A stretch of 63,954 nt of DNA, the filler included, from Lenisia limosa (lineage: Eukaryota > Protista > Breviatea), in NCBI GenBank assembly GCA_001655205.1. It is 18 parts of 18 records of this genome, joined end to end, with 100 filler letters (N's around TTAATTAATTAA, not from the genome) between each part and the next. Parts side by side here need not be neighbours in the genome. Positions count along the whole stretch, not along the records: positions 1 to 4,808 come from LPNZ01006166.1; positions 4,909 to 13,776 come from LPNZ01005109.1; positions 13,877 to 15,239 come from LPNZ01009326.1; positions 15,340 to 18,245 come from LPNZ01000274.1; positions 18,346 to 19,618 come from LPNZ01000714.1; positions 19,719 to 20,944 come from LPNZ01003308.1; positions 21,045 to 22,652 come from LPNZ01002458.1; positions 22,753 to 36,578 come from LPNZ01009155.1; 10 more parts are not named here. One strand, 5' to 3'. A model generated the notes under the pieces. The model had not been told where the DNA came from and searched no databases. It was given only the letters and a program-made list of their open reading frames with translations. This document shows, in pieces, positions 516 through 62,747 of the stretch. The translations under genes and the position numbers were made by a program. Positions within the stretch are counted from its first letter, which is position 1. Every line of letters starts with the position of its first letter.

Positions 516-3500
516 CCCCAGGATTTTTGGCGTCGCCACTTCCTGGCGATGCATATCAAGCCGTTTCTGCTCCATTGTCGACAGGCCTTCCATTTGCTTC
601 TTCCTCTTTTCCTCCTGTGGAGAGAGGGAGAGGGGGTTATAATCAGGCTAGCTTATTCAAAGATATTTTTTTATTTTTGAATCCTAATACGTATTGTCTC
701 TCTCTGAAAACTGTATAATATTATTTGCTACACTTGTTTTTCTGATATCAAATAGATCTACTATTGTTATGATGTAATAGTTAATAATAAACATAAAAAT
801 AGAAAGAGCAAAAAAGGTAACTCACCTTCATTTCCAACCAGTCCTCATAATCCCTCTTCCGTCTCAGCTCAACACGTGCAAGAAACTCGTCTTTCCGTCT
901 CCCGGATCTCATTTCCATCGCTTCCTAGACGATAAGGCTGGGTTGAAAGAACGATACCAAATTACACACAGTGTCGTGGAGCAAGAAACGGGAGTGGGGA
1001 TGGGGNNNNNNNNNNNNNNNNNNNNNNNNNNNNNNNNNNNNNNNNNNNNNNNNNACCATATTTAAAATTCACGAAAATACTACTGATAAGAAGAACAAAA
1101 CCGCCAATTTTGGAACAATATATTACTAGAATATAATAAAGTAGTCTTGCCATTTCAAATTGAAAAAAAAAAACTTCCGACCACGATAGTGTGTCGATGA
1201 TACATAATACCATTATACCATATATCATATATTTATAGGTATATACAACATCATTATATTTACCAAACTTGCGGATATAATTTCTGTATTTTTGGTGTAT
1301 ATTCACAATTTTTCATATGATGCATATTCACTATAGTTAAACCCTATGAATCATTACAATACACCTCTGCATAAAATGCAAATAATGCTATTCGATGGTA
1401 GAAACGATAAAATAAACTTCAAAAAAGCAATATCTGTTCATCGTGAAATGGAATCACACCAACTACGCAAATCCCCCCTACCCGCATAGCCATGACATAT
1501 GAGGCCGACTCCTTGAAAACATCAGGAACATCCTGGGGTTCCGGGGTGTGTCTTTCAGGCGAGGGGGAGCGCGACATTGAGCGCGCACGCAAACGGCCGA
1601 ATTCGTCAACCATTCCTGGGGGCGGGATTAAAATTGGAAAATTTATGAAATAAAAAAAAGCCCAAATCAACTCAGTTGGCTGACAACACACAAAGGTGGA
1701 GGGGTTGAAAGTTCTATAAAGCTTCGATGAATCGTAAAGCTTTTAAGACAGAATAAAAGTTACCAATACTCCTCCATCTGAAAAGTGAAAATACCTGATC
1801 GATTATTCGCAATTTCCTTCTTTCGTTCATACTCGGCTCTTTTCTGGGCAATTTCCTTTGCCTAGAAGCCATAAGTGGGTGGGGTGTTGACTTATTATGA
1901 TCCCATTACACATATGATATGTCATCGAGCATTTCAATTGCGATCGTATAGCATGCACATCTTAGCGAGTATATAGTATATTATATATTTTATTAGCTTT
2001 ATATGATATACTATAGATAAATGAATAAGATTGTACGTATTATAAATTATATAATCTGTTGATGAAACCTACTTGTTTTACCATGTCCTCTTTCTGCTTG
2101 ATAGCACCTAATGCGGTGGTAGGGTCCTGGAGTATTATATTTTGTTTGAAAGAAAATTGACTCAAAATTTGAGTTTTAAAAATGAAGCAGTCCACCACCA
2201 TATGCAACTTGACAGAATTCTATGTTTTGTGTTAAGAGAAAAACGAAACAAAAAAAAATTAAGCAAGAGAAAAGTGACTAGATATTTCAACTATTCGACC
2301 AAAGCAAGGCATACTACGTGTATTAATTATTATGTTATGTATTTCTTAACCCCAACCCCCAGCCAAATGCCAGCCAACAAATATGTTGAAGGAGAGAGAA
2401 GGGGTATGTTGGAGAAAAAAGAAGAGATATGTTTGAGGTGATAGCAGAGAGACAAGTCAGATATTGAAGGATGCCACAACCCACATTCAGTTTCGACTTT
2501 GGAGCGAAAATGGCCTCAGAATGTTTTCCTCCAGTGTGCAGGGAATGCTTGTGGAATTCGAAGCCAATTCGCTGGTTTTCCAAGGTCGTCTCGTCTTCTT
2601 CTAGAGATAGGGTGAAAAAAGTGGGAAATGTCAATTTTGTAATTCACAAAATTAAAGAGAAGTAGCAAAATAAGAATGGTAATAATAATGCAGTATACTG
2701 CAAATAGATCCTTTATTAAAATTCTCCTCGAGAGGAAGTGAAACAAACATTACTGGCGCCCCAGACCAAAGCTAGTTTCATGAGCGGCAGCGCCACAGTT
2801 GATCATATCCACTGCTGAGGCTGGCGCAGCGTCCTCTCCCAACCCCATTAACATGTACTGGTTCTTTGATCCTGAAAGGTGCGTAAAAACGGAAATGGGG
2901 ATGGATGAAAGTTATTTTAATAATATATAAATGACGGTCACTGTTATGATATGTTAAACTTGATTCTATTAGACGAGGTGGTGCGGTCACATCTTGATTT
3001 GTTATGTTAATATTTGTTTTCGCCTCAATTTTTAATGTAGAATAATCGATCAAGACTTGCTGTTCGTAGATGACCAACTAAAAAATATCTTCTATATCAT
3101 CCAAAATAGCTTCGGAATCATTTTGACCCCAAAATACCTTAATTTTGACCAATCCGAAATAATTAACACCTCAAATACCTTCAACAGCCTTGTCAACAAA
3201 GCCCTTGCGTCGCACGGCAGGTGCCATGCTATCCTCAACATAAGTGCTCCGGAGGTCATTGGGGGCGTACATGCGTTCCGGGACCTGGGTTTCTCCTTTG
3301 CGGAACCCAGATGTTTCTATTTCGATAATATCAACAGACATTAAAGAGAGCCCTCACATCCCAATTAAGCAACACTATTCAATATTAGTAATAATTATAT
3401 TCAACAGCCATTCCAGAGCCCAAATATCAAAACCAAGTACATCCAACTCTGTTGCTATCTTGTTGAAACAATATGATATGATACGTTATTTTCTTATTTA

Positions 3501-4462
3501 AATCATAAGATCTCTTAGAGTAAACACACAATGGTAAGTAGTTCAGTTGAACAATAAGAGGAAAATGACATAATATGTGTCCCATTTAGAAACCAAAACT
3601 ACTGAAGCCCCTCCCCCCAACCATGACAACCTTGAATGATCCTGGTCTTAGCCTTGAGCTTCTCCACTGCAGTCTTTGGTGTAAAAAAAGTTAAAAGCCC
3701 GAGAAAAGTTGACATGTTCCATTTCAACGAACCCAGAGTAAATAATATTATAAAAGACTATCGCTGACACGAAAAGTCGTGACATGGATCGGGCTTTATC
3801 TTTAGTCAATTGCGTCAAGACTTATCGCAGTCGTGGTATGATACGATATAAATACTGAATGTTCATGAAGGTATAGCATATCATAAAGTGACCGTGGCAT
3901 AGACGCCTTGAAAACCATCTCACCATTTGGTCATACCCAGGAATGATACTAGTATCGAACCCCTCTGAGAGTTTTGATTGCATTTGGCTGCTTAATTTAG
4001 CCATTCCATCTGTTGCGTTTACCTGAGAGGGTTATTTGTATTTCCACAGATGGTATGATCATATGACATACGTGAGTAGTAGATAGCACGAGGATTCACC
4101 TCAAGTGTATCAGAGTATCATTGAGCCTTGTGGCCAACTATCACAAGGTATCATGGAATTGCGTAAAAATGTTAGTTCACGCATTTGACAACAAAATAGA
4201 TCTGATTATGGTATTGGACAACGACAATGTGGAAAAGAGAAAAGTCTTAAGTGAACAAAATAAGGCCAACAATAAAATCCCAAGTGAAAAAAGAAACTCC
4301 CAGAACACAAACACCATACTTTTCTGAAGCCCAAGCCGGAACCACGGGGTTGTCTTTCACTGACCAGTAAGTATCCACAATCATGACAGTAAAAAAAAAT
4401 ACACAGGCTGTGGCAAGACTTGACCGCTTTTCTGAAGAAAAATCGGAATCATGAACACTAAA
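516..4462 (-). CDS. Multi-exon hypothetical charged/coiled-coil protein (partial)
   Basis: Mostly phase-compatible GT-AG exons on minus, e.g. TSGFRKGETQVPERMY...AVEG|SKNQYMLMG..., AKEIAQKRAEYERKKEIANNRS|GMVDEFGRLRARSMSRSPSPER...VMAMR|EAMEMRSGRRKDEFLARVELRRKRDYEDWLEMK|EEKRKKQMEGLSTMEQKRLDMHRQE. No family recognised. Confidence 0.65.
1628..1710 (-). repeat. Intron-3'-end element, module A
   Basis: ...GTTGTCAGCCAACTGAGTTGATTTGGGC(T)nATTTCATAAATTTTCCAATTTTAAT then CCCGCCCCCAG| exon. Confidence 0.85.
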
Positions 4463-7561: not shown

Positions 7562-7630
7562 GGAGTACAATTGGAAAATTGATGAAACAAAAAACCCCCA
7601 AAAAATCAACTCTGTTGGCTGACAACAAGG
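7562..7630 (-). repeat. Intron-3'-end element, module A
   Basis: TTGTCAGCCAACAGAGTTGATT...TTTCATCAATTTTCCAATTGTAC followed by a C-run. Host exon not established. Confidence 0.75.
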
Positions 7631-7859
7631 GNNNNNNNNNNNNNNNNNNNNNNNNNNNNNNNNNNNNNNNNNNNNNNNNNNNNNNNNNNNNNNNNNNNNN
7701 NNNNNNNNNNNNNNNNNNNNNNNNNNNNNNNNNNNNNNNNNNNNNNNNNNNNNNNNNNNNNNNNNNNNNNNNNNNNNNNNNNNNTCGGATGACCCAAGTA
7801 GCAGTCAGTGGTGGTCAAAGGACCTCCCAGAGAAAGATTGGATTGTGGAAGAATGTGAA

Positions 7860-10800
7860 AGAAGAAGAAGTTGGCAAAAAATTGATCTTCACGGGATTTT
7901 TCAGCCTTCAGAGTCGCAAAAAGCAGTTGAACACCCAGCAGTTCGAACGTCTAAAATAATGAAGGAGGCTTTGTGAAAACATGCAAACTTGGAAAAGGGA
8001 TTTGTTCAAAGGAAAGAATGGATGGAAAGAGATATCTTCATTGGATAAACCACATAAGACAAATGCCTCGAAGTCATCATCACAAACAAGGGGCGAAAAA
8101 AATCATCCTTCATACCATTTACGTGAGGAGAAGGGGGACAAGCAGCGCAAGGCACCTTCATGATGAATCTAAAAGAATAAGAAATGCTACCACAAGTTGC
8201 GTTATAAGGAAAGAAGAAGGCATCAGAAGTCGGCAAAAAATTGGTCTTCACGGGTTAAATCAAGACAGTGAACCAGAAGTTCAGTTCTCATCAGAACCTT
8301 AGTATAATTACAATATAGTGCCTCTTCTCACCTCTGTTTCTCCCGTATCCGAGTTGGACAAAAAACAATTGAACACCCAGCAGTTCGAATGTCTAAAATA
8401 ATAAAGGAGGCTTGGTGAAAACATCCAACATGGGACAAGAAGTTGTTCAAAGAAAAGAATGGATGGAAAGAGATATCTTCATTGGATAAACCACATAAGA
8501 CAAATGCCTCGAANNNNNNNNNNATAACGTATTCCCTTCATACCTTTAGGATGACAATCGGAGGAAGGGGTCTCTGGACATGTCCTTTAGTACTGGAAGA
8601 ATTAGAAATGTTGAACACAAACTATTTCAAAAGGAAAGAAAGAGGCATCAGAAGTCGGCAAAAAATTGGTCTTCACGGGTTAAATCAAAGACAGTGAACC
8701 AGAAGTTCAGTTCTCATCAGAGCCCAAAGATTAACAAAAAAAAAAAAATCCACAGATTCCTCCCGACCTATTCTCAATATTGGCTAAGCAAGTTGTAACT
8801 CTTCTCCGGTTCGAACGTCTAAAATTATGAGAGAAGGGAGTGGTGGAAACATCCAATGTGAATGAAGAGATTGTTCAAAGGAAAGAATGGATGGAAAGAG
8901 ATATCTTCATTGGATAAACCACATAAGACANNNNNNNNNNCCGTTATCCCTCCATACCTTAGTATAAAATCAGAGGAAGGAGGGGACTCTGGACATGTCC
9001 ATTTGTCTACTGGAAGAATTAGAAATGATAAACAATAAAGTAATTCAAAAGGAAAGAAGAAGGCATCAGAAGTCGGCAAAAAATTGGTCTTCACGGGTTA
9101 AATCAAAGACAGTAAACCAGAAGTTCAGTTCTCATCAGAACCTTTGGAAAAAAACACCCACGGAACCCCTTCCCACATTCTCTCAAACTTGACAATCAAG
9201 CAATATCTTTTTGCACAGTCATAACGTCTAAAACTGTGAGATAGTACTTGGTGAAAACATCTTACATGAGACAAGAGAATGTTCAAAGGAAAGAATGGAT
9301 GGAAAGAGATATCTTCATTGGATAAACCACATAAGACAAATGCCTCGAAGTCATCATCACAAACAAGGGGCGAAAAAAAAGTCCTCGCTTCATACCTTTA
9401 TTACGACAACAATGCTATGCTTAAACGTAGTGTAACGTACAGGTGCTGTGGAAATTAGGGACGACAACAGAAAGGAAGGTCAAAAAAAGGCTAATTGAAT
9501 CAGGGTATAAGATGTTAAGTTATCTACACTCTGTGAGTTCAGTTGAACTATGCAAACATCACATTCACTATGAATCATCAAAATGAAAATCCCAATCACC
9601 TGATCACATCAGACACAATAAAGGGGTCACAGTTCCGGGGATTTTGCCAATATTGTCTGTCAGCGTTCATGACGATGGGAGTAGAATACGACCTAGGGGT
9701 CGTCAGAAAGACAAGAGAAAGGTGAAATATAAAGGAAAGAAGTCGGCATCAGAAGTCGGCAAAAAATTGGTCTTCACGGGTTAAATCAAAGACAGTGAAC
9801 CAGAAGTTCAGTTCTCATCAGAGCCTCATATGGAGGAAGGAGACGGGAGAATCATACTTTTTGAAAGGCGGTACTTCGGCCTGTGTGGAAGCGCCACTCT
9901 GAAGGACACAGGGGAGAAAAGCCTTTCGATGCGTGTAGTGACGTTCTAAAGAGTTAGAGAAGGTGGGCAATTGGTTTTAAAACGGGGAAAGAAGATGTTC
10001 AGTTTAAACTCATAAGAGGGTTCCTCAAATGTAATCAGAAGCAGAACTGTTTTTAGGCATCATAACAAAGAAGTCAGCAATTGTTAGGCAGCAACATACC
10101 TTGAATGAATCAAAAGTTGAAAAGAAGTGATCTCCTAATGAAAAGCGCCAGGACTACCTGGAGGGCACAGGGTAGAAAAGGGCTTGATGCAACAGTGACA
10201 TTCTAAAGAGTTAGAGAAGTTACACAATTGATATAAAACGGGGAAAGAAGATGTTCAGTTTAAACTCATAAGAGGGTTCCTCAAATATAATCAGAAGCAG
10301 AACTGTTTTTAGGCATCATAACAAAGAAGTCAGCAATTGTTAAGCAGCAACATACCTTGACTGAATCAAAAGTTGAACAGAAGAGGTCTCCTTGATCTAC
10401 AAAAAGTAAGAATTGGAAAAGAAAATGTAAGGGAAATGTTAATGTTGGTGATTCAGTTTAAACTCATAAGAGGGTTCCTCAAATGTAATCAGAAGCAGAA
10501 CTGTTTTAGGCATCATTATCAGAAGGAAATAGATGATAATTAGTACTTCACCTAAATAAATCCTCGAAAAATAATCGATTGTTAAAAGATCTTTTATCGA
10601 AGAGGAGTGAAGCCAAAACGAATGCTGAGAACACAAACCTTTTGAAAATGCACGTCTGGACTGTGCCTTGAGGCACGTCATAGAACGTCAATATACCTAA
10701 AGAGGTTAAGAAAGGCAAGAGGAGAGGGGGTTGAAAAAGCAAAGGAATGATCAGACGGAATCTGGCTTAGATGAGGTAAACACCATCGTAACAGTGAATA

Positions 10801-15198: not shown

Positions 15199-15239
15199 GG
15201 TAAGGAAATTTATGAAACAAAAAACCCAAAATCAACTCT
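15199..15239 (-). repeat. Intron-3'-end element, module A 3' end
   Basis: AGAGTTGATTTTGGG(T)nGTTTCATAAATTTCCTTAC-CCTCCCCCCCTTAG| exon. Confidence 0.8.
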
Positions 15240-18374: not shown

Positions 18375-19488
18375 CCCTCCCCACGCTTCCATTTTAGCCA
18401 TAGTCTCCAGTTCTATGGTTCGTGCTAAGGCGGCCGCAATGTCAGGGGCATTCTCAAGGTACTGTCCTGGGGAAATTTATGAAACAAGTAAAACGAAGGA
18501 AATTTCGATGAACATTGGAGTCAAGGTACTAATCACGAAAGGAATAATCAGAAACTCCAAACAAACAAAAAACAAAAGCAATGACAAACTAGGAGGGAGG
18601 GGGAAAGATTGTAAAAGTTGTGGAGAGTAAAATTGGACAATTTATGAAACAAAAAAGCCCAAAATCAACTCTGTTGGATGACAACTCACGACGGTTGAGA
18701 CCAACAAAACAAACAAAGCCCAGCCCAGGCCAGTCGCTTCTTCAGCACCGCATCCCGATTTTTACTATTTCAACCTGAGCTGTATCAACTGGTTGTGGTT
18801 CATATGGGGAACGCCAACACTTTTCCTGACAAGTCCTTTATACTTTTTACAATAATAGGTAAAATAACATTAATATAAATCAGCAATTCAAGCTTTAAAC
18901 AAATCATCCCTACCCTACTAACCAGTTTCCACTCCAACAGTCTTTTCACAGGGAAGTGCAACTTTGCCCTTTTGCGGAGCCTAAGAAATGAGCCTGTTTT
19001 TTAATAACTAGGTAGACCTTCACTTTCGGTTCCAAAAGACTGACAAAATATAGATACTTATCGAGTAATTCAGTTTTTTGGGAACCAAAATGAAGCCCTA
19101 TTACTAGGGCGTTACAATGGCCAGAAAAGACCGGAAAATATAGTGTGAATAATTGGGGCTTCCCTTCAGTCCCAACAAAGACAGAATTTTTCGATAAATC
19201 CTCGATAAATATCGATATTTTCACGGACTTTTACGGACCGTAAGCAAGCCCTTTGTAAAATAACACAAGAATAAATGTCCTTTTCGAGGGCAAGAAATTT
19301 TTTTTTCAAAAAATAGAGAACAATAGTTTATCGAGCATTCTCTTAACGGAGTGAAGCCTAACTAACAATGACACGACCAAACAATGTCTATTTTCTAGGT
19401 ATAACATTGACACCAATACTAACCACTGTTTCTTTTCTTGGTCTAGCCGCACGGCCGCCTCTGCCTCCTCTTCCGTCTCGTCCACCAC
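18375..19488 (-). CDS. Three exons of a hypothetical protein with an RGG-rich segment
   Basis: Phase-compatible GGRDGRGGRGGRAARPRKETV|APQKGKVALPCEKTVGVET|GQYLENAPDIAAALARTIELETMAKME. Confidence 0.65.
18468..18757 (-). repeat. Intron-3'-end element, modules A+B
   Basis: Full A, then B, then TGTTTCATAAATTTCCCCAG| phase-confirmed exon. Confidence 0.9.
19013..19360. mobile_element. Cluster of three family-M MITE copies in one intron
   Basis: Copies at ~19013-19100, ~19154-19252 and a partial at ~19300-19360. Confidence 0.75.
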
Positions 19489-19819
19489 CTAAATGAATTA
19501 AACTGGACAATTTATGAAACCTAGCCAACCCTCACAAAAGAAAGAAAAACAAAATAAAAAAAAAGCCAATAATACCCCTCCCCTCTTTTGCTTAAATGAG
19601 ACTCCCCTTCAAAGAACCNNNNNNNNNNNNNNNNNNNNNNNNNNNNNNNNNNNNNNNNNNNNTTAATTAATTAANNNNNNNNNNNNNNNNNNNNNNNNNN
19701 NNNNNNNNNNNNNNNNNNATTGCCCAGTGTATTCTAAGTACTGTGCGAGGGGTTTTCCTGAAATACTTTAAGAAACAATGTTAAAAATGCTTTCCTTATT
19801 TTTGGACACCAAATGGGAC

Positions 19820-20734: not shown

Positions 20735-20869
20735 GTAAGAGGGGTCCATGATATTGATGAGGGTACTGGATGAAGGAAACCGATACCGTATTTAAAATTT
20801 GTATTATTCGACCTTTACTCCAGTATTCTTCATCAAAATTAATTACCTTCGTTTATCCCCCCCTCCCCC

Positions 20870-20944
20870 CGTGATGTGATGCTGGGCTGCAGAAGCGACT
20901 GGTCTGGGCTTTGTTTATTGTGTTGTTATCAACCCTTATGTGTT
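20870..20944 (+). repeat. Element module A 5' part, sense to the plus-strand host
   Basis: GTGATGTGATGCTGGGCTGCAGAAGCGACTGGTCTGGGCTTTGTT...TATCAACCC; cut by spacer. Confidence 0.75.
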
Positions 20945-21399: not shown

Positions 21400-22762
21400 G
21401 TGGGGGGGGGGGGACACNNNNNNNNNNNNNNNNNNNNNNNNNNNNNNNNNNNNNNNNNNNNNNNNNNNNNNNNNNNNNNNNNNNNNNNNNNNNNNNNNNN
21501 NNTTCTTTCTGATTTTCCAAATATAGTCACAAAATTTACGTGCATTACAATTACTTTCTAATATAATGTCTACAACAGCAAGGATATCCACATATTACCA
21601 TTGACATGACAGACGAACTTCTCGAAGCTTGTCAGCGCAGAAGATGACATTCCCCTGTTCAAGGTCTCAAAATCGGGTGAGGAACAAAGGGTTGCAGGCA
21701 ACGGGCTGCAGATTCGGGCAAAAGGTTCATCTGGAATATTTTCTCAGATCTTCTTGGATCTTGAAAAAGATCTTTGAAATATTCTTGAGAACACTTTGAC
21801 CAGATCTGCAGTCCTCTGGCATCAGGCGGTATCCCCTAGTTTTATTGGGCATCAGGCGGTATCCCCTAGTTTTATTGGGCTAGTTTTTTCTTTGTCTCAC
21901 AAAGTACCTTTGTATTTAGCTCCACCACTGTAACGTTCCCTGATTTCTCAGGTGGAAAGGCAGAGAAAATCGGTTCTCTCGCAGCCAACGTCGTGTTGGA
22001 CAGACGGTTCAGGTGGGCAGTACACTCCCGTACAGTCTCATTCACCCCTCTCCCCCTCCAATTAAGTTGTCACTTTTCACCCCCTCCCCCCCTAGCTTCC
22101 TTGACTATCTTAATGGAGGCCTGAAACTCAGTTTAACCGTGGCAGTTGATATGTCTCTTCACAGGTTGGTAAGGGGGTTAATCGCGGTTGATCCATTATT
22201 AACCTTTTTCTTGCTTTTCTACAAGCTTTTGACCAAATTTTTCAAATTTCCTTCACATACATATGATACCGATATTCTTCCCGTCTGTTTTAGACTGTAT
22301 GAAAGCCTTGATTATTAGCCCAATTAACTGTCCTAGTGGTGACCGACAAGACCGCTCCAGCATGCATTTTGTCCATGGGTTTGGGGGGATGAGGTTGCTC
22401 TGGTCATCATTTGCAAGTCATCAAATCCCCCCCTTTCTTTGCTTAAGCCCTCATGTTTGTTGCAATCCAACAGAATTGTTTGCAACTCTCTTGTGTTTCT
22501 CAACTGTTAGTCAACAAAGTCGATTTTGGATTGTTTCAAAAATGTTCCATTTTTACCCTATCTCTCTCATTGGTTCGTAACTCTTTGATACTTTGTGTTT
22601 TTTTGGGGTTCTGTATTCTGTTTCCCTCTTTTATCCACAATTCAATTGTCAGNNNNNNNNNNNNNNNNNNNNNNNNNNNNNNNNNNNNNNNNNNNNTTAA
22701 TTAATTAANNNNNNNNNNNNNNNNNNNNNNNNNNNNNNNNNNNNNNNNNNNNTCATCCCTAG

Positions 22763-37022: not shown

Positions 37023-38508
37023 CTCCATCAAGCAACTCCATGTCGCAGAAGACCCGGGCCGGCTTGACTGCCGTTTTCACTGAAAGTGTCAGTTCTGCAG
37101 TAAAGTCTCTATTGGAACTAGGACTAAAGATCCGGCCGTTTCTGCAATAGAAAACTCTCTCGTACCTGAAATTAAGTCCTTTGTAAGTACTGATAGTTCA
37201 CAATAAACATACATAAGGAATGTACATGAAAAAAAGTGGCCAAATACATCCAGAAATGTAGGGAAGTCTTAATAATACTATATGAAAACAGGCCCCAACA
37301 TACCGTAATAGTGGCCAGAAGGCAGGCCCAGTCGCTGCACATGCTTGCAGGAGTGGTACGGGCTCTCTTCCTATTGGGAGTAAATATGAAGTCTTCACGG
37401 TGATGGGTTAGAAAGAATACACCATTTAACCGTACCCCCCCCCCCACAGTGTTATTTGGCGTGGTCTCAAGACGGCTCCATTGTTCGGACCAGCAGACAA
37501 GTGTTTCCTGCAGTCCGTTGTTATCCACTATCTGTAGCATTCCTGGGGGGGGGGGGGGGNNNNNNNNNNNNNNNNNNNNNNNNNNNNNNNNNNNNNNNNN
37601 NNNNNNNNNNNNNNNNNNNNNNNNNNNNNNNNNNNNNNNNNNNNNNNNNNNNNNNNNNNNNNNNNNNNNNNNNNNNNNNNNNNNNNNNNNNNNNNNNNNN
37701 NNNNNNNNNNNNNNNNNNNNNNNNNNNNNNNNNNNNNNNNNNNNNNNNNNNNNNNNTTAGAAACTCACTCAATACTCCATTCATCTCAGTCGGATATCCC
37801 CCCTTACCATTCATCTTAGTCGGAATTCACCTCTCCATTCATCTCAGTCGGATATCCCCCCTTACCATTCATCTCAATCGTACACGTCTGGAGTTCGGAC
37901 AAAGTAACCGTCGGTACTTTGAGGGCCGAAAACACCGCTGTTTCGGGGAAGTGGATTCCCAAGGGACTAACCTGGGGGGGGGGGGGTAAAATTGGANNNN
38001 NNNNNNNNNNNNNNNNNNNNNNNNNNNNNNNNNNNNNNNNNNNNNNNNNNNNNNNNNNNNNTGTTGGCTAGCAACACAGAACACGGATCATAAAGATGTA
38101 TTATCATTGTTTCATTGGGACCATCCGAGATTTAAGTAATTATTGAATTTTGAAAGCATATATTCCGCCTTGCATTTTGAGACGAACTCGATTTCAGTAA
38201 ATTTGTTCAAAACAATTACATGCATTCATTAATCCCCATCCACATTTGATTTTAAAGACAATATGATCCAACACTTCAATCAGAAATCATACTATTGATA
38301 TGATACACCAATCATCCAAGGCGGAATATTCTCTTCTAAGTCCCTCCGACCCCCTCCGCCAACTAATCCAATTGATGATCCTAGAGGCCTAGTAGAGGGG
38401 GGAAAGACTTGTCAATATTTCAACCCCTTGAACCCTCCCCACATTGATGTGTTGAAGACTCCACACGGATGCCGCCAGACATATGAGCGTGATCACAATC
38501 GCTTTCAT
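37023..38508 (-). CDS. Secreted protein with a fibrinogen-related/NEC-like motif (5' part)
   Basis: Signal peptide MKAIVITLICLAASVWS, then VSPLGIHFPE..., and EESPYHSCKHVQRLGLPSGHYY|VKTAVKPARVFCDMELLDGG, which fits SC...SGxY...VxCDM...GG. Confidence 0.7.
37985..38085 (-). repeat. Element module A spanning a gap, at the acceptor of the secreted-protein gene
   Basis: GTGTTGCTAGCCAACA-(N)-TCCAATTTTAC(C)nAG| exon. Confidence 0.65.
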
Positions 38509-48359: not shown

Positions 48360-49352
48360 AATCCCTGGACCGGTTGGGAAGACTTCCTTGATTTCATTTG
48401 GAGAAACATCGATGATGTCAGCAATCTGATCGGGGAGGAGGGTAAGTAAAATGGAAAAATTTATGAAATAAAATTTTTTTTAGCCCAAATCAACTCTGTT
48501 GGCTGATAACACACGAGGGTTGATAACAACAAAACAAACAAACAGGCCAGTCNNNNNNNNNNTGGTAAAGGTACTAATCATGAACCGAATAATCTGAAAC
48601 TCCAAACAAACAATAGCAAACACAAGCAACCAACACTACTTGACAAAAACGACAGACACAAAAATAAAAACAAAAACAAGCCCGAGAATTGGAAAAAATT
48701 ATGAAACCAAAAAAGCCCAAATCAACTCTGNNNNNNNNNNNNNNNNNNNNNNNNNNNNNNNNNNNNNNNNNNNNNNNNNNNNNNNNNNACACGAGGGTTG
48801 ATAACAACAAAACAAAGCCCTGGTGGTAGCGCTAAAAAGTAAAAGAGGAGGAAATAACCAGACAAAAAGAAAGAAAATCTGATCAGATTGTAAGAAGAGA
48901 AAAGAAGAAAGAAATTAGAGAGAGGAAGTGGAGTTCAAATATTCAAATCCACAGATTTTATAAATAACACTATAGAATAGGTTAGCCCCCCCACCCCCCA
49001 AGTACCGTTTGTCCTGCCTCCGCATTGCACATGGAGTTGGCGTAAGAAAGATGAGTTGTAATACCGAAAAGTCGGCTTGGGTTACAGTCTGGGGGTGTTA
49101 CAGGTTATATGTAAAGTCAGTGTGGCGAGGAGGGTAAAACTGTGAAACAAAAAAGCACATACAATAAGTAGTCGGGGGTGGGTGGGAAGGGTTCTAATCC
49201 TTCCAAATAAGGAAATAACCTTTCCATAAAAGAAACCTTCCAAATAAGGCAGTGATCCCACCCTTGATAAGGAAGCCGAAATTGGTTGGGAGGACATTTG
49301 TCGGGTTTCGTCCAGATGTGCATTTGGCTTGGAGGGGCGCGGTAATGTCAAT
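48360..49352 (-). CDS. Three exons of a hypothetical protein
   Basis: Phase-compatible IDITAPLQAKCTSGRNPTNVLPTNFGFLIK|DCNPSRLFGITTHLSYANSMCNAEAGQT|IADIIDVSPNEIKEVFPTGPGI. Confidence 0.65.
48440..48820 (-). repeat. Element array A-B-A ending at an acceptor
   Basis: Two A copies around a B copy; ends TTTTCCATTTTACTTACCCTCCTCCCCGATCAG| exon. Confidence 0.9.
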
Positions 49353-49364
49353 CTGGGGGATGGT

Positions 49365-49575
49365 GGTAAAACGAAGGCAATTTTGAAGAAGATGCATAAA
49401 AGTACTAATTAAGAACCAAATAATCTGAAACTGCAAAGAGAAAAACAAAAACAAAAACAAAAAACTAAGTAACAACAAACACGAGCACCCAACGCTAAAA
49501 CAAGACAAAAACCAGATGACAAAAACACAAAAACAAAGCCCGAGTCGTAAAACGAAGGAAATTCCAATGAAGAAT
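49365..49575 (-). repeat. Element array B-B ending at an acceptor
   Basis: ...TTTCAGATTATTTGGTTCTTAATTAGTACT...AAATTGCCTTCGTTTTAC-CACCATCCCCCAG| exon. Confidence 0.85.
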
Positions 49576-50561
49576 ATTAGAAAATGACATATCATAATGC
49601 ATGTATTGAAATCAACTCTATGAGCTAGANNNNNNNNNNNNNNNNNNNNNNNNNNNNNNNNNNNNNNNNNNNNNNNNNNNNNNNNNNNNNNNNNNNNNNN
49701 NNNNNNNNNNNNNNNNNNNNNNNNNNNNNNNNNNNNNNNNNNNNNNNNNNNNNNNNNNNNNNNNTAAACACCCGGCCAAGATCTGAGTGATTAACAACAC
49801 GTGTTTTAAAATCTAAAGAAGTAGACTGCACCTATCTTATCAACTACTGTATCATATCACTTTTTGTATCATTTTCACAAGTCTGAATTACCATTTTCCA
49901 GGCAATGCTATGATACCACATATCTACTCCTATGACAATTGACCGACAAGTCACAATGATACTCTGGTACACTCGGGATGAACCCTCGTGTTATCTTCGT
50001 TCACAATTTCGATTAATTTCATCTCTGTACTTTAATATATTGTCGGTAGAAATCGATAATTTTCGAAGATTTATCGAGAAATTCAGTCTTTTTTCGAACC
50101 AGTGTTAAGCCCTCGTTATATGTAAATTATGACGAAAACCCCGACCTGTGATCATGATAGAGGCATGGAAATTGGCCACAATTTTGATCACATGCCCTTG
50201 GAAATTCGTGGCTGAACTGGCCTAAAATTGTCAGAATGTGACCGTACCGGACACGATTGACTCAACATATATACGTTGTATACGTATACTATGTACATAA
50301 TAAATCGACAAAGCTATATATACATGCATATAGATATAGATATCAATATATACATAGGTGACTATACATGAACGCGAACACTCCCATGAACGCGAACGCT
50401 TTTTAGAAACANNNNNNNNNNNNNNNNNNNNNNNNNNNNNNNNNNNNNNNNNNNNTTAATTAATTAANNNNNNNNNNNNNNNNNNNNNNNNNNNNNNNNN
50501 NNNNNNNNNNNTTCTTTGGGAAATCAAGACTTAACCCGGTCACTGTCCCCCCCCCCTCTAC

Positions 50562-52736
50562 CGTGATAAGATCGTCGTTGACATCAATTCCTTTCATTTT
50601 TACAAGAATAGGCGTGTAGAGAGCAGTGAGTGCCTCCTTTTGTCCTTCGACAATGTTGCTTGCCTTATTAGGGTTTTCTCCGACTCCCATCCGCACGTCC
50701 CCTGTGTAATCAGAAGAGGCATCGATGAAATTGAAGTCTGCCAAAAAAAAAAGAGTTGTTAGTTTTGATCAGTACCCCAATTTATGAAAAGACCATCATC
50801 TGTCCATTGTCCAACCAGAATATGAGATCTGCGTGATCGTTTCGAGGAAATCATCCATTGACACCTGAAAGAAAAATGAGACAACACAAAGAAAGCGTGA
50901 TTAGCTCAAAGAGAGAGTAAAGAGTAAGAAAGAGAGAATATGTTTTTGTGAGTCAACATGAGGGACAAAAAAATTGAGAACAAAAAACTGGAACCGGGAG
51001 TGCAGCTTTGTATTTTTTAATCTCATAAATTCCCATTTACCACACACATTCTAAACAGCTCTCAGCGCTATAGCTTCACTTTCGGTTCCGAAACAGCCGT
51101 AAAATATCGATATTTATCGAGGATGTCGAAAATTCAGTCTTTTTTGGAACTGAAAGTGAAGCTCTACTCAGCCCCCCCCCCCCCATGAACACATCCTCAG
51201 TAACACTCAGCGTCCTCCCACTGTTTCGGGTTCAGTAAGCAGTAAAGCAGTCCGTGTGGCTGAAACCCTGTTTTCGAGCTGTGAGAGGGGGGGGGGGGAG
51301 TAAAATTGGAAAATTTATGAAACAAAAAAAAACCAAATCAACTCTGTTGGCTGACAACACACGAGGGTTGAGAACAGCAAAACAAACAAAGCCCAAGGGG
51401 TGAATAACAAGGTAAAGATACCATAGCAGAGGAGGGGGATTAAGATGACAGAGGGGGGCAGGGGTGAAGCTACAATATCAGTGATCTTGAGGTTAAAACA
51501 GGAGAAATGCCACGTGAAAATGGCGAATCAATAACCGAAGGTTTTTTTGTTGTAATAATATTTATTCATCAAGCGAATATTACCCATTTATCAATATTCT
51601 AAACCCCAGCTTTAATATCCCCTCACCACTGCTTCATTGATAGCGGCATTTGAGGTCAGGATTGACACCTTCATAAAGTGAGTGGAAAAGAAAAAAGTAG
51701 CCCACTGATTTATGCATTCTTCCTGCAATGTAGAGGTCAGACCAAGTTGTCAGGTCTTTCAACAGGTCTGCTTCGGAGATGACACCATATTTGATCGTCT
51801 TGAGGGTGAATAGGGAGTGGCTGTGAAATAGAGAATATGCCAAAAAAAACCCTCAATATGGTTGGCTAAACCTTTGAAAACAGGAGCGCGTGGGGAAACG
51901 AAACCCCATGTTTCCAAAACAAAACAATGATCCAAATGATTCAAGGTCAGTCGTGAAGATTCCATAAATGACCAACCTTTCCTTTGAAGGGAACTAACGT
52001 ATTGTAGTAAAGACCAGGGCCTATTGACCCTAGAAACGACACTACTTTGGAGCCTTGGCGATTAGACAATGGCAATAAACAGGGGGTTTGCCCATTGATA
52101 GGATTAGGGCTTCACTTCGGTTCAAAAACGACCGGGAAAATATCGATAGTTTTCGAAGATTTATCGAGAAATTCATCTTTTTTCGAACCGAAGAGAAGCC
52201 CTAGTTGGGATAAGATGAGCATCACTTTCAGTTTCAAAAGAAGGATACATATGATATATAATTAGATATACTATATAATATGCATATACTTTATTTATAT
52301 ATCTATATATTATATATATATAATATGTCATTTGATATCATATGTATTTAAGCTCTGGATAAGGTAGTAAATGAGGANNNNNNNNNNCATGTCATGGACA
52401 CAGTTATTCTGAAATCCTTGAGGCATTTTTGAAAAGGTCACAACTAGGGCTTCACTTCGGTTCAAAAAAAAGAAGACTGAATTTCTCGATAAATCCTCGA
52501 AAACAGTCGATATTTTACCGGTATTTTTCGAAGCGAAGCTCTAGTTTCAACAAACGCCCCCGCCACCAAGAACAAACGCCCCCGCCACCAAGAAACTTTA
52601 AAGAAGAGTAGTGNNNNNNNNNNNNNNNNNNNNNNNNNNNNNNNNNNNNNNNNNNNNNNGGATTGGCAGCAATATTGCTGGCATGCCATTCATCAGCGTT
52701 CTTCACCCCAAAGACAAAATCCACCATTGCGGCTTT
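50562..52736 (-). CDS. TAM41: Mitochondrial phosphatidate cytidylyltransferase Tam41 (partial)
   Basis: [21 protein letters not shown]..., [15 protein letters not shown]|[31 protein letters not shown]|[14 protein letters not shown]|[19 protein letters not shown]|[17 protein letters not shown]|[17 protein letters not shown]. Hallmark IKYGVIS, LYIAGR, SYxGDxRM motifs. Confidence 0.93.
51071..51166. mobile_element. MITE family M (TAM41 intron)
   Basis: TAGCTTCACTTTCGGTTCC...GGAACTGAAAGTGAAGCTCTA. Confidence 0.8.
51298..51397 (-). repeat. Element module A at a TAM41 acceptor
   Basis: ...CCCTCGTGTGTTGTCAGCCAACAGAGTTGATTTGG(T)nGTTTCATAAATTTTCCAATTTTACT(C)nTCTCACAG|LENRVS. Confidence 0.92.
52105..52543. 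mobile_element. Two family-M MITEs in opposite core orientation (TAM41 intron)
   Basis: 52105-52203 and 52445-52543, both starting TAGGGCTTCACTTCGGTTCAAAAA. Confidence 0.9.
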
Positions 52737-53238
52737 CTATACCAGTTTAACAAGGCAAGTGTGTTGTCCTGCTAAGGGTCATCGTTATTTTATATATATA
52801 GTATATATACGCTTTTTTGACTAGGTAGGATAGGTCAGAGGGCAACTTCAAATGCATATACAATTATATATGATTTGATATATAGTATATACATATATAC
52901 TAGATATATATGACGAGGACCCTAAGTATGATGATATGCATGCTACTGAACGACAAGAGTCTTTTTTACATCGAGAATACCTAGGGGTTCCCTACGGTCC
53001 AAAAATGACCGAATTTCTCAATAGATTCTCGATAAATATCGATATTTAATCGGTCTTTTTTGGACCTAATAATACCACATAGTATATGAAAACTGTTCCA
53101 GAAAATTCATATCATATCATATACTATTGAGGATAATNNNNNNNNNNNNNNNNNNNNNNNNNNNNNNNNNNNNNNNNNNNNTTAATTAATTAANNNNNNN
53201 NNNNNNNNNNNNNNNNNNNNNNNNNNNNNNNNNNNNNA

Positions 53239-53650
53239 GGCCAGTCGCTTCTGCAGCCCCGCATCCCATCACTCCAACAAACAAAGCCCAGACCAATCGC
53301 TTGCTTCTGCAGCCCCCGCATCATCACTCCAGCAAGCAAAGCCCAGGCCAGCCACTTCTGCAGCGGGGACCCTCAATAAGAAAAATATATAAATAGAACC
53401 AAGCCCCTACGGTGCTCTGCTGATGTTGCTGATGTTGCTGATGTTGCTGATGCTGTGGCACAGGCAGTCTTTGGGGGAATGGAGTGCCAACTTCTATGGG
53501 CTGGAGCTGGGGGGTGTCAATAGAATGGAGGCGGATATGAGGCGCTGAGATGGAAACTAAGGAAATTTCGATGAAGATTATTTGGGTGAAAGTATTAATC
53601 ACGAACCGAATAATCTGAAACTCCAAATTAACACATATCAAACACGAGCA
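53239..53650 (-). repeat. Element pieces: three tandem A 5' ends (53239-53365) and module B at an acceptor (53553-53650)
   Basis: GGAGTGATGGGATGCGGGGCTGCAGAAGCGACTGG x3; B ends CATCGAAATTTCCTTAGTTTCCATCTCAG. Confidence 0.8.
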
Positions 53651-54345
53651 AAAAAGTATGTGAATATAATAATGGTTTAATATCGAAGGGGGGGTGAGGG
53701 TGTGTGTGAAGGGCTTCACTTCGGTTCAAAAAAGACCAGTAAAATATCGATAGTTTTCAAGGATTTATCGAGAAATTTAGTCTTTTTTTTGAACCGAAGT
53801 GAAACTCAAGGTGTGTGTGAATGAAATGGATCTGAGGAAGTGGGAGACAAATTGGCGAAAAAAAAAACAAAAACAATACCTGTGGGATGTTGGTCTTCGA
53901 GTTGTTTTGGGGGGAAAGTCGAGGAGTCAGTCTAGATACCTAGGAGGGAAATAAAACGAAGGAAAGTATTACCCGGGTGTGAAAATTAGATGGTGGGGGT
54001 TAAGCTGTTTTGCATTTGTAAGAAGTAAAATGTAAAATAGGGGGAACAGAGCCCCGAACTAACACAAAAAATCCTAAGAGAGGTGATTGGATGAATTATT
54101 GGATAATAGCGAAGGCATAATCACCCAGGTAAAAACAGTATTAATACCTATGTCGGCGATGAATTTCTTCATTTTATAACAAAAAGAAGACTAAAACAAA
54201 CAAAACGAAGACCAAAAGAAAGAAAATAGGAAAGAAAGACACAAGAACGAAAAGTTATAAAAACAGAACCAAACAACAAAAAATACAACAAAAAAATAAC
54301 AACAAACTAAATAACCCACTTGGAGAGGTTCGATACTTGACGGGT
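53405..54345 (-). CDS. Exons of a low-complexity (Q/H repeat) hypothetical protein
   Basis: Exon-like PHIRLHSIDTPQLQ...PQHQQHQQHQQHQQST with a canonical acceptor and donor. Phase link to the upstream exons not resolved. Confidence 0.35.
53711..53806. mobile_element. MITE family M
   Basis: GGGCTTCACTTCGGTTCAAAAAAG...TTTGAACCGAAGTGAAAC. Further partial or diverged copies at ~7380, 50045, 52982, 58549 and 61780. Confidence 0.85.
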
Positions 54346-54834
54346 GCTTCTTCATCTTCTTTGTGTGATGCAATCTTCATAGTTAAAGGGGGATGGTTTA
54401 GATGTGTTATTTGGGGATATTCAATATTTGTTACATTATTACGTGTTATTTAGGTGCACTCCTGCGTTATTCAGGTGTAGATCATATATTCCAGCGTGAC
54501 ATTGAGGATATTACAGCGTGGCATTAGGTACATTATTAAGTCTTCTTTGTGTGGCCACCATAAAATACACCACTGTTATACTCTGATGCTAGACCCTGCT
54601 ATGTTATACTCTGATGCTAGACCCTGCTATGTTNNNNNNNNNNNNNNNNNNNNNNNNNNNNNNNNNNNNNNNNNNNNTTAATTAATTAANNNNNNNNNNN
54701 NNNNNNNNNNNNNNNNNNNNNNNNNNNNNNNNNGGGAGTATCATTGAATCGATTAGTAAAGTGGGTAATATTACGTTTGTAAATTCCAAATTTTTAATTA
54801 ACTAGTCTAAGTGCGTTGGTCATGTTTGTGATTG

Positions 54835-55184
54835 CTAGTATTGATTTGTTTGTTTCAGGTGACTCTGTTGGTGGTTAGTATCTTCACCCCGATATTCATC
54901 ATCAGAATTTCCTTCGTTTCACTCCAATTTTCCTATTTTACCCTCCCCTTTCGCTGGAGAGGTGATGGAATGCGGTGCTGCAGAAGCTGGAGAGTGATGG
55001 AATGCGGTGGTGCTGCAGAAGCGACTGGCCTGAGCTTTGTTTTGTTGTTACCAACCCTCTTGTGTTGTCAGCCAACAGATTTTGGGCTGTTTTTTTTTAT
55101 ACATTTTCCAATTTACTCTTCAAAGGCTTGTTTTTGTTTTTGTGTTTTTGTCATCTGGCTTTTGTCTAGTTTTAGCGTTGGTTG
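54835..55184 (+). repeat. Element array B-A-B, sense to the plus-strand host
   Basis: B 3' end, A with a duplicated 5' end, then the B start running into a gap. Confidence 0.88.
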
Positions 55185-56758: not shown

Positions 56759-58851
56759 GCTATGGGCGTTCTCTTTGGCCGGCAAGTCTTAGTGTTCAAT
56801 TGCGACGAGGGAATTGACTTCAAGTCCATGGGCAGAATCTTCACCGGCATCGTAAAGGTATTCAGTTCCCATCCTTAACATGAATCGAGTATATCTTTAA
56901 GCCAATATTCTTCATCGAAAATTCCTTCACCCACCCTTTGGAGTGATGGGATGCGGTGCTGCAGAAGCGACTGGGACTTTTTTTTTTGTTGTTGTTATCA
57001 TCAATTTTCCAATTACCACCACCCCCTAGTCTGGAGCATGGGGCTGTTTCGACGAATTTAACCGGCTGGATGAAGAGGTGCTCTCCGCCGTCTCGCAGCA
57101 GATTCAGACGATACAGGTGCGGGGATATGTAAGGTTGTATGGTGGCAGGTGCGGGGATATGTGGCGGAAATATATCATAGGAGGGCATGAATGAAGTATT
57201 AATTAAAAGTAATTAACGATATTAGGCAAGAAAAGTACTGACAGGAATAAAGTTATTGAAATTCACGATTTTAGGCTGGCATCCGAGCTAAGTCCGCTTC
57301 CGTCCAACTCCTTGATCAAGAGATCGACCTCGATTCTAACTCCGCAATCTTCGTCACTTTGAACCCTGCCGGAAAGGTCTGGCTAGGATAGTAGATAGTA
57401 GATAGTATATTGAATTGTCTCGATATTCTATCATATGGAACTGAACTGAATTGAACTGAACTTTAATCGAAATGTCGTCATTTAGGGCTATGGATATTCT
57501 CAAACTCCTCTCCCCAAAATTGTAACATTGTACTTGATATTCCATCAAATTGAACTGAACCGAATTTTAACTGTAACATTTTTTAGGGCTACGGAGGCCG
57601 TTCGAAGCTTCCCGACAATCTCAAACTCCTCTTCCGACCCGTCGCCATGTCTCGTCCCGATAACGATCTAATTGCGGAAACAATGCTGTATTCCGAGGGC
57701 TTTAGATTTGCCAGTAGTCTGGGCAGGAAGGTATGCGGGGGAGGTAATTTTGCTCTTTGTATGTGTTTTTTTAGTTTCATAAATATNNNNNNNNNNNNNN
57801 NNNNNNNNNNNNNNNNNNNNNNNNNNNNNNNNNNNNNNNNNNNNNNNNNNNNNNNNNNNNNNNNNNNNNNNNNNNNNNNNNNNNNNNNNNAAGCAGTTGC
57901 TCTCTCCCCAACAGCACTATGACTGGGGTCTCAGGTGGGGGGTGTGAAGGGGTACAACAGTGACCGGGATAAGTTTTGACCGATTTGCTCTATGATTTCC
58001 CCAGAAAAATCGAAAATTTATCTCTGTAGATATGATGAAAAACATAAGCATATCATATAATATCTTAGATGTTGTTTGTTTGTGTATTTCACAAATTTTG
58101 CTTCATAAATGTTCTATTTTTGTACGCTGTATTGTGTTGCTGGATTGTTTCACAAATTTTCAATTTCTAATATTACACCCCCCACCAAGTATGGTAATTT
58201 GTTTATGGTATCCTTATGTATTTATTTGTTTCCTAGATTTCTAATGTATACAGTATATTTTTTCTCTTGCCCCCCCCCCCCACTCCCATTTTCATTATCC
58301 CCTTAGAGCGCTAAAAACCGTCCTGTCCGTCTCCGGCCAACTTCTCCGAGATATGGACCTGGCTGAGGATGTGGGGGGGGGNNNNNNNNNNNNNNNNNNN
58401 NNNNNNNNNNNNNNNNNNNNNNNNNNNNNNNNNTCAAATCGGTCAAGACTTTTCCTGGTCTGTATGTAGCAATGAGAAAAAAAAAACAAGGTTGTATCTG
58501 ACGGGGGATAGATATAATATAGTATGTATTGGAAGCAGAGGTTTATTTCAGTTCGAAAAAAAGACTGAATATCTCGATAAATCCTTGAAAACTGTCATTA
58601 TTTTGCAGAAAATTTTCGAATCGACATTCGATATAGTCTGTATTGGATGTGTGTGTTGGTAGGGGATAGGGATAATATCCCTGGTTGACTGAATTGAAAC
58701 GGGGTTGAAGATTTTAACTGATTTACATCATTACCATTGCAACGTCATACCATAATCCCCCTTAGCCTACTGAGGAAATCGAGGCTGGAATGGTTGTCAA
58801 AGCAATTCGAGTCAACACGCTGAGTAAACTCACCTTTGCAGATCATCGGAG
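56759..58851 (+). CDS. DYNC2H1: Cytoplasmic dynein-2 (IFT) heavy chain, AAA1 to AAA2 exons
   Basis: [33 protein letters not shown]|[29 protein letters not shown]|AGIRAKS...FVTLNPAGK|[39 protein letters not shown]...|[14 protein letters not shown]|ALKTVL...|...[34 protein letters not shown] and NTxSKxTF are dynein-2-type as I recall them. Confidence 0.9.
56938..57016 (+). repeat. Internally deleted module A at a dynein-2 acceptor
   Basis: TGGAGTGATGGGATGCGGTGCTGCAGAAGCGACTGG...TTATCATCAATTTTCCAATTAC-CACCACCCCCTAG|[10 protein letters not shown]. Confidence 0.9.
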
Positions 58852-61039: not shown

Positions 61040-62747
61040 CTTGAGGTTCATGAGGGCAGCTTCAAACTCCTCGAATCTCGACCTCCTCGCAGCCTCAATG
61101 GCGGCCAGTAGCTGGTCAATGGCTGATTGGATCTGTGGAGAGGGGGGGGGGGGTATAATTGGAAAACTAATGAAACNNNNNNNNNNNNNNNNNNNNNNNN
61201 NNNNNNNNNNNNNNNNNNNNNNNNNNNNNNNNNNNNNNNNNNNNNNNNNNNNATCAACTCTGTTGTCTGACAACACACAAGGGTTGATAACACCAAAACA
61301 AACAAAACCCAGGCCAGTCGCTTCTGTAGCACCGTGTAATGAATAATGGGGAGAGGGGTAATGGAAAATAAATGTGTATGGTGGGGGGTCAGGGGAGAAA
61401 ATATACAATACTATTTAAAACACTGATTCTTTTTTGTTGGATACACCATCTTAGTACCTATCCTACTGACCTTAAGATTGGAGTCGTTGAGAGCGTCCTT
61501 CGACACGTCATCAACACCGACAGAATCGCAGGTGGCAACAGCGGCAACTGCAGCGTTCAAAACCGGCCGTGTGGCATTGACGACTTGCTGGCGACTTGGC
61601 TCGAAGTTGATAGTCGACACACAGGCCTTGGTCACGGCCACGAGAGAACCGGTGCTATGGGCAGCGTCCTTGGCCTTGGCAACCACTTTGGCCTGATCGT
61701 CGTTGTCGGAAACCTTCGCTGCAGCGCCCTACGAGGGAGTAAAATGGGGAAACTTATGAAACAAAAAAAAGGCCTAAAATATCATAAAGTTGGTCGTAAT
61801 ATTTTAACGGTCTTTTTCGGACCGAAGTGGTTGAGGTTAGCTTATTTATGGTCTCTATCACTGGGTGTGAGAAGAATGTTTAATAAAGAAAGAAGACCTG
61901 ATCTATTGTAGAACAGGTACGCCAAGACGCTAATCATTTGTCTTACAATCGAATGGAGAGAAAACTTATAATATATATATATATAAAATAAAATAAAAAG
62001 GCACACAATAAACACAATAAAAACAGATATTGCTGGACCCCCCCCCCCNNNNNNNNNNNNNNNNNNNNNNNNNNNNNNNNNNNNNNNNNNNNNNNNNNNN
62101 NNNNNNNNNNNNGGCGGCAGCAACCCGCTTGACTGCGTTGATAACTTCCTAAAAAGGAAGGTTAGTAAACTGTGTACAAGACCAAAACAAATAGAGAACC
62201 TGTTTAATGATGCTGTGAAGGTGCGCATTCACTTCGGTTAGAAAAAAAACCGGGAAAATATGATAGTTGTCGGGGAAGTATCGAGAAATTCAGTCTTTTT
62301 CGAACCGAAGTGAAGCCCTACACATTTCCCTTGAATGTCAGCACATACAACATATTCTGATAAAAAAACCTTATACTTACCGAAAAAACCAACATATTTC
62401 CCTTCAAACCCAGTAGAACACTTTCAACCCTCAGAGTCCTCTCTCTAACAAAAAATTCGTCAATATATTCAGCAATTACAGCAGACTCGTTAATAATCCT
62501 CTCGCCATACTTAACAACAGCCCATAATCCCACCCACTTGTTGTCTAGCTGCTTCGACTTCCTGGCATGCAGCAAGGGCAAGAATCTGTGATGCTGAAAC
62601 TCCAATGATCTGGGGGTAGGGTCAAAAGGAGGGGTTAACTACAATGTCAAGAACTTTAAGAATGTCATCTAGGGCTTCACTTCGGTTCGAAAAAAGACTC
62701 AACCGAAGTGATGCCTTAACCTTGCCGCAGTGGACCGTTGTGAAGCT
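61040..62747 (-). CDS. TLN: Talin rod (R1-R2-like) exons
   Basis: SFTTVHCGK|IIGVSASQILALAACQEVEAARQQ|EVINAVKRVAAA...GAAAKVSDNDDQAKVVAKAKDAAHSTGSLVAVTKACVSTINFEPSRQQVVNATRPVLNAAVAAV...|IQSAIDQLLAAIEAA. Follows the talin STSQLVACTKVVAPTI...QEQLVEA pattern. Confidence 0.75.
61151..61335 (-). repeat. Element module A at a talin acceptor
   Basis: Near-full A spanning a gap; ends TTTTCCAATTATA(C)nTCTCCACAG|IQSAID. A second fragment at 61737-61772 ends CCCCATTTTACTCCCTCGTAG|GAAAK. Confidence 0.88.
62226..62320. mobile_element. MITE family M (talin intron)
   Basis: TTCACTTCGGTTAG...CGAACCGAAGTGAAGCCCTA. An internally deleted hairpin copy lies at 62670-62719. Confidence 0.85.

Follow-up and report, generated by a model that had tools for sequence, protein, structure and literature searches.

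A high-copy repeat found in sense orientation just before the 3' splice sites of Lenisia limosa introns, and its possible spread by reverse transcription into acceptor C-runs

In a 63,954-nucleotide window of the genome of Lenisia limosa (Breviatea; GCA_001655205.1; 18 parts of 18 records joined end to end, filler included), we identified a dispersed, non-coding repeat with two modules, A and B, whose copies sit in sense orientation just before the acceptors (3' splice sites) of host introns. This placement is an observation that our analysis confirmed. As judged from their sequences, the branch points of the element-bearing introns are likely element-derived, and we regard the repeat, with moderate confidence, as a high-copy family of non-autonomous retro-elements that would be copied by a Penelope-like reverse transcriptase (RT) of the Chlamys type into the C-runs preceding acceptors and would replace the branch points that their insertion displaces.

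The window is eukaryotic, has about 38% GC, is rich in introns and is broken by 67 runs of N, 17 of which are spacer-type joins. Repeat loci were found by BLAST, by motif scans and by profiles built from the copies, and the stretches 46420-50411 and 18346-18830 were compared with sequencing runs. Two contig sets from one study served this purpose: a DNA-like run with a unique depth of about 23-34, whose contigs are possibly the source of the window sequence itself, and a poly(A) RNA library, which would miss non-polyadenylated RNA. Homology backs the host genes dynein-2, talin and TAM41. Pfam gave no family for 20 of the 26 exon references, and for the exon at 22094 nothing matched in PDB, so that several other host genes are defined solely by open frames and splice sites.

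Profile matches in the window (21 to A and 10 to B) were grouped into 18 loci (Table 1), and the two-module family that the first-pass annotation had placed at 16 loci is therefore real, with its count corrected. The reversed window yielded 0 profile matches at default settings and a best E-value of 4.9 with the filters off. Module A is about 137 nt long and extends from TGGAGTGATGG to CCAATTTTAC; module B, of about 160 nt, opens with a GGGCTT-T-rich stretch resembling that of A and ends with CCTTCGTTTTAC, and the first and last motifs of the two modules are similar. Long copies of A are 80-91% identical to one another. The modules stack in a single orientation (A-B-A, B-A, or the end of A followed by A), often with a C-run between them, and head-to-tail joints of 5' end to 3' end also occur in 5 and 6 contigs of the DNA run. 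Two possible decayed sense copies of A, each by a C-run, were noticed outside the 18 loci, at 17726-17830 (+; profile E 0.094) and at 58080-58186 (+; profile E 7.7), the latter about 130 nt upstream of a dynein acceptor.

The summed depth of the DNA run is 178,000-390,000 across A and 13,000-46,000 on B. Depth summed over contigs does not give a copy number, but as an order of magnitude it points to about 10^4 copies of module A genome-wide, in agreement with the window density of one repeat locus for every 3.3 kb of called bases. Neither JGI metagenome contigs nor viral contigs held a match to exact 24-mer or 27-mer patterns of the repeat.

At 12 of the 15 outer 3' ends that are free of N, the first AG is a YAG lying 5-19 nt on, behind a tract of at least 80% pyrimidine, compared with 15 of 162 TTTAC motifs elsewhere and, for random positions, 1766 of 17811 (Fisher p 4.5e-9). 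These outer ends were chosen by hand, and two of them (19497 and 53951) are short fragments that drew notice in part through the AG behind them. Three ends miss the pattern: 18471, where the AG is 2 nt away and still an acceptor, 7565, where a C-run follows and the first AG is an AAG at 24 nt, and 22556, where the next AG is 94 nt off. The last two do not lie at an evident acceptor, and the placement initially described for the family thus does not hold for every copy.

Several acceptors downstream of the repeat have support of their own. The exon edges of a single RNA contig fall at 48425 and 49352/3, both downstream of repeat copies, and reading frames join across the element-bearing introns at TAM41 51278, dynein-2 57030 and talin 61132 and 61728. 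These six belong to the 12 acceptors named by the first-pass annotation. Among the remainder, 18466 is marked by RNA cover that ends at about 18467, as read from bin depth only, and 1616 by an in-frame join to an exon without a homologue, while 15185, 19488, 37972 and 53546 are candidate acceptors. Gene models at 18466/19488, 37972, 53546 and 15185 did not close across the intron that holds the element. Every copy with a callable host is sense to the pre-mRNA, as had been claimed; the host at 7565 is not callable.

A second repeat of the window, family M, is a miniature inverted-repeat transposable element of about 100 nt with long terminal inverted repeats (fold z -5.6) and a high copy number in the DNA run. 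It lies mostly away from acceptors, at 6598, 14885, 17626, 19020, 19154, 47761, 50034, 51069, 52103, 52445, 52983, 53706, 58537 and 62219.

The first AG downstream of a branch point is normally the one used in splicing. Upstream of the C-run, the AG-free zone consists of element sequence at 12 of 13 acceptors that bear the element, and the branch would therefore lie within the element. Candidate branch motifs there are TTTTAC at -8 to -23, TTCAT near -30 to -40 and TTGAT at -47 to -65; at acceptor 61728, where the AG-free zone is just 22 nt, TTTAC at -12 is the sole candidate. Element-free introns had been described as using CTAAT/CTAAC-type branch sites, which fits the 7 of 15 that have YTRAY in the AG-free zone but not the other 8, where only motifs of the TTCAC/TTTAC/TTCAT type are found. 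Given this degeneracy, TTTTAC falls within the range of the host. The proposal of a mobile module that supplies the branch region is thus supported by inference, from the use of the downstream AG in RNA and from the AG-free zones, with the A of TTTTAC as a candidate branch nucleotide. Outer and inner copies, compared by eye, did not differ clearly in the conservation of the branch motifs. The ends of the element resemble a U12 branch motif; U12-type splicing was rejected in view of the donors GTACTT, GTATTC, GTCAGT and GTGAGG.

Table 1. Repeat loci in the window, with their strand, their make-up and the evidence for each
Position	Strand	Content and setting	Evidence
1628..1700	-	Module A, 3' half; 10 nt to AG, exon start 1616	Profile; in-frame join, no homologue
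7565..7628	-	Module A, then C-run without YAG; no evident acceptor; 5' part behind N	Profile
15200..15239	-	Module A 3' end with small deletion; 12 nt to TAG, candidate acceptor	Profile
18467..18757	-	Stack: near-full A, C-rich spacer, B 3' part, A-end fragment, acceptor CAG	Profile; RNA cover ends at about 18467
19497..19524	-	A-end fragment, weak match; 6 nt to TAG, candidate acceptor	
20811..20944	+	B end, C-run, A from its 5' end; 3' end lost in gap	Profile
22446..22556	+	Two decayed A pieces; next AG 94 nt off	Profile
37986..38081	-	Module A across N gap, then 12-C run and AG; candidate acceptor	
48446..48822	-	Stack A-B-A in 580-nt intron 48426-49005; 18 nt to CAG	RNA contig exon edge 48425; profile
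49366..49581	-	B end, then full B with internal duplication; 11 nt to CAG	RNA contig exon edge 49352/3; profile
51300..51396	-	Module A in TAM41 intron 51279-51626; 19 nt to CAG	In-frame join
53238..53364	-	Three tandem copies of A 5' part; 3' end lost in gap	Profile
53552..53650	-	Module B 3' part; 5 nt to CAG, candidate acceptor	Profile
53951..53972	-	B-end fragment, weak; 9 nt to TAG; host-type CTAAT upstream	
54806..55184	+	Stack: B, A-end, C-run, A 5' duplicate, full A, B 5' part; 3' end lost in gap	Profile
56892..57016	+	B end, C-run, A with internal deletion; 172-nt dynein-2 intron 56858-57029; 11 nt to TAG	Profile; in-frame join
61153..61368	-	Module A across N gap, A-end relic and C-run before; talin intron 61133-61470; 18 nt to CAG	Profile; in-frame join
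61739..61776	-	A-end fragment before talin exon at 61728; 8 nt to TAG	Profile; in-frame join

DNA-run contigs that leave A at its 3' end continue into 12-15 C's in sense (sets of 135, 102 and 89 contigs; agreement about 0.5), and an AG stands 2-10 nt past the C-run in all three 3' consensus lines, which at an agreement of about 0.5 is a weak hint. The 5' end of A is sharp genome-wide: 148 contigs depart from the element at one place, and the boundary is preceded by a C-run and TTTAC. With C-runs at both flanks, the element thus lies within such runs, and it often comes after the terminus of an earlier copy or after an older branch-like motif. Serial units of a branch-like motif and a C-run without AG were also noticed upstream of acceptors, at 51400-51475, 22040-22095 and 61350-61400, and are possibly relics of targets split earlier.

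Host introns have C-runs before many acceptors (e.g., 636, 14258, 37559 and 58270) and G-runs after many donors (e.g., 37435, 48986, 50547 and 57946), and a donor G-run is a C-run on the opposite strand. At the element, the C-run is the acceptor tract of the host, and much of the position of the element is explained by this. In a hand-made list of 31 tracts with visible flanks, a copy was found at 8 of 15 acceptor C-runs compared with 0 of 16 sense-strand G-runs (p 0.0008). A noisy automatic sort of C-runs gave 5 of 22 compared with 0 of 27 (p 0.014); it left 66 of 119 tracts unclassified and misfiled some, and the hand-made list is preferred. The objection that the element simply follows poly-C therefore holds for the C-run flanks genome-wide and fails for the C-runs of the antisense strand, which are unused (0 of 16), so that poly-C alone does not give the pattern. 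On its antisense strand, A opens with the donor-like GTAAA and contains 1-4 YAGs in the three copies checked, and its sense strand has no AG in the last 38-42 nt, which makes selection against antisense copies plausible. Insertion tied to the transcribed strand is also a plausible source of the sense bias.

If a Penelope-like RT copies the element, the following course can be proposed. An endonuclease would nick a C-run on its G-strand, where the element RNA, through its C-rich 3' end, would prime reverse transcription; this would fix the orientation of the copy relative to the run. Given that the host has C-runs before acceptors and G-runs after donors, sense C-runs would mostly be acceptor tracts. 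Each insertion would push the branch point of the host about 100 nt or more upstream, behind AGs within the element, and splicing would survive only with a branch site in the AG-free last 40-60 nt of the element (TTTTAC, TTCAT, or TTGAT further up). The leftover C-run would again be a target, so that copies would stack, and antisense copies at donor G-runs would be missing either through purging or through insertion tied to the transcribed strand.

In the parts of the cited papers that serve as our sources here and below, the closest system is that of the non-autonomous Chlamys Penelope-like elements (PLEs) of Chlamydomonas reinhardtii, such as Chlamys-N4_cRei and MRC1 (PMC8557442, PMC9977147, PMC9940879). 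Chlamys PLEs, described from green algae and a slime mould, target (C)n and (CA)n, form head-to-tail non-autonomous copies, leave undetectable target site duplications (TSDs) and mostly lack hammerheads (PMC8557442). Thirteen new Chlamys insertions, with a median of 128 bp, were all intronic and matched the spread of (C)n; Dataset S1 of that paper lists them without orientation (PMC9977147). The repeat of L. limosa is likewise short (about 137 nt), intronic and placed at (C)n, forms head-to-tail copies and has no hammerhead and no discernible TSD: the window holds 8 matches resembling the hammerhead core, none inside a copy, and TSDs at 11 loci were not above chance (p 0.25). It differs from Chlamys-N in its sharp 5' end, its copy number of about 10^4 and the fact that inverted copies were not seen, and the likeness described here is one of anatomy. 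Orientation, acceptor position and branch points are not described for Chlamys in the compared parts of PMC8557442 and PMC9977147.

Several points weigh against copying by a Penelope-like RT. A scan of 150 of the 155 window open reading frames of at least 70 amino acids detected neither an RT nor a GIY-YIG domain nor a transposase; the enzyme is thus guessed from anatomy, and the repeat can be said to work like a Chlamys-N element but not to be one. Inverted copies, a hallmark of PLEs, were seen neither in the window nor in 15 of the 90 joints. The depth of the DNA run is approximately flat along A from 3' to 5', which indicates less truncation than target-primed copying predicts; together with the sharp genome-wide 5' end, it also qualifies the initial description of the copies as variable at the 5' end and fixed at the 3' end, with which short 3'-only pieces in the window agree. 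G-runs beside N gaps, such as those at 58381, 39634 and 21413, could conceal antisense copies. The branch nucleotide is known as motif candidates only. Finally, the 172-nt dynein-2 intron is about 80% element, and of the 65 related loci that have the motif 0 share its position; a new intron would suit this equally well.

Among the other accounts, we consider it unlikely that the repeat is a non-autonomous DNA element of the HUH type (Helitron or Replitron) or the tyrosine-recombinase type (Crypton), which would insert in a fixed orientation at a C-rich target and of which purifying selection would leave the sense copies at acceptors. Sharp ends on both sides, flat depth, the lack of TSDs and tandem stacks would all suit such an element. 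Helitrons end in TC...CTRR. The ends of the modules lack this motif, terminal direct repeats were not found, and a terminal hairpin in A was not above chance (z -0.8 to +0.2). Many 3'-only fragments in the window also speak against this account. HUH elements, including Replitrons and Helitrons, do share with the repeat orientation-specific insertion, usually without TSDs (PMC10288648), and Cryptons target a motif like their own end (PMC9977147). In the literature compared, however, (C)n targeting is described for Chlamys PLEs and not for these groups, and it does not appear for Replitrons or Helitrons in the compared parts of PMC10288648.

A template of another kind, an excised and debranched intron ending in the element, a C-run and YAG, might be copied by a host or parasitic RT into other acceptors; only sense copies at acceptors would then reproduce, and no promoter would be needed. 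In keeping with this, no Pol III (RNA polymerase III) B box was found in the repeat, A-box-like matches occur at the chance rate, there is no tRNA match and a C-run stands in place of a poly(A) tail. Moreover, A, B and mosaics of the two share one 3' context, and the copies sit exactly at the end of an RNA that the cell makes anyway. We nevertheless find this account quite unlikely, since varied upstream intron sequence would be expected in place of the one sharp 5' end of A, and the spacers between element and AG differ in every copy and so look host-derived. An extended version, in which a retro-element templated by the end of a spliced-out intron and inserted in coupling with transcription or splicing would home to 3' splice sites, swap in its own branch points and have rebuilt the branch region of thousands of introns as a promoter-free selfish acceptor module, likewise seems unlikely to us.

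Movement of a short interspersed nuclear element (SINE)-like repeat by a sequence-specific long interspersed nuclear element, with a C-rich and not an A-rich tail, is to our mind distinctly improbable. The repeat is short and non-coding, with a fixed 3' end, a defined 5' end and some 3'-only fragments, all as expected of a SINE, but it has no head derived from tRNA, 5S or 7SL and no TSD above chance, and its frequent head-to-tail stacks suit PLEs better (PMC8557442). Nor does the repeat have the anatomy of a miniature inverted-repeat transposable element: terminal inverted repeats (TIRs) are absent, the best self-inverted local match being an internal hairpin, and no fixed TSD was seen, whereas family M does fold back (z -5.6).

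The first-pass annotation had likened the repeat to introners, that is, to elements that create host introns, and the dynein-2 intron described above could be read in this way. We consider this very improbable. All introns modelled have a unique 5' part and their own donor, a donor is part of none of the copies, and the dynein-2 junction shows no loss of exon sequence; by anatomy, the repeat is thus not an introner. Only about 13 of 80 dynein-2 loci have any intron in the region, and because most are intron-poor and their kinship is not established, the comparison is weak. Three related loci have an intron 4 nt further on and two share the next intron of the window. The A and B profiles found nothing credible in the 80 loci, the only matches (E 0.036) being in coding sequence. 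Introners resemble the repeat as mobile repeats that carry splice-relevant sequence at high copy in introns (PMC12130899, PMC12403724). They are, however, similar across their whole width (PMC12403724), whereas the element of L. limosa spans only the 3' part, without a donor and apparently without the AG, and seems to enter existing introns.

The other early suggestion, a multicopy functional RNA encoded in introns, is scarcely credible: the repeat is sense-only and intronic and 22 RNA contigs hold it, but folds of A and B are not above those of shuffled sequences (z -1.8 to +0.7), no copy matches Rfam, copies are truncated, deleted and stacked, and the RNA contigs are shallow (summed depth at most 90; listed contigs 2-19) in a library that selects for poly(A).

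Other features of the window were recorded alongside. A tandem cluster of units resembling small nucleolar RNAs of the box C/D type occupies 7800-12300 (-); five copies share a guide stretch with snR61/Z1/Z11, other units weakly resemble U30 and snR60, and all are below the Rfam gathering scores. An inverted pair of about 100 nt that bounds about 720 nt at 44195-44915 is possibly a derivative of a TIR DNA transposon. An open frame of 837 codons with one N gap, at 30721-33234 (-), consists mostly of K/E-rich repeats of 21-24 nt. Two nearby genes at 41700-43900 and 45400-46300 have exon stretches that look similar by eye and are possibly paralogues, with no Pfam match. Two more small dispersed repeat families lie at 332, 18195, 24051 and 39088, and at 5198, 13521 and 57959.

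Our literature search, to which most subscription papers were out of reach, turned up no repeat described as restricted to acceptors in sense orientation. While (C)n targeting has precedent, the literature searched held no case of acceptors being occupied in sense only on this scale, or of branch points being replaced. Splicing likewise shapes the persistence of mammalian intronic retrotransposons by place and orientation, but these are scarcer near acceptors than near donors (PMC3088655), whereas the family described here lives in the acceptor zone. The C-runs and G-runs of the host recall the (AC)m-(GT)n bridged introns of fish, which have complementary simple repeats at both ends (PMC4691745); those concern the design of host introns and not a mobile element. 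The donor G-run and the acceptor C-run could similarly pair and bridge the intron (cf. PMC4691745).

Mobile elements are usually tolerated least in the last 50 nt of an intron, and a family of about 10^4 copies appears to live there. If the branch point is element-derived, a selfish repeat would have rewritten a core splicing signal in many introns without creating them, by a route distinct from that of introners. The finding also opens to test the question of where the sense bias of retro-elements that target microsatellites originates, in the insertion machinery or in selection, for which the C-runs at the acceptors and the G-runs at the donors of this host provide matched C-runs on both strands and thus a built-in control.

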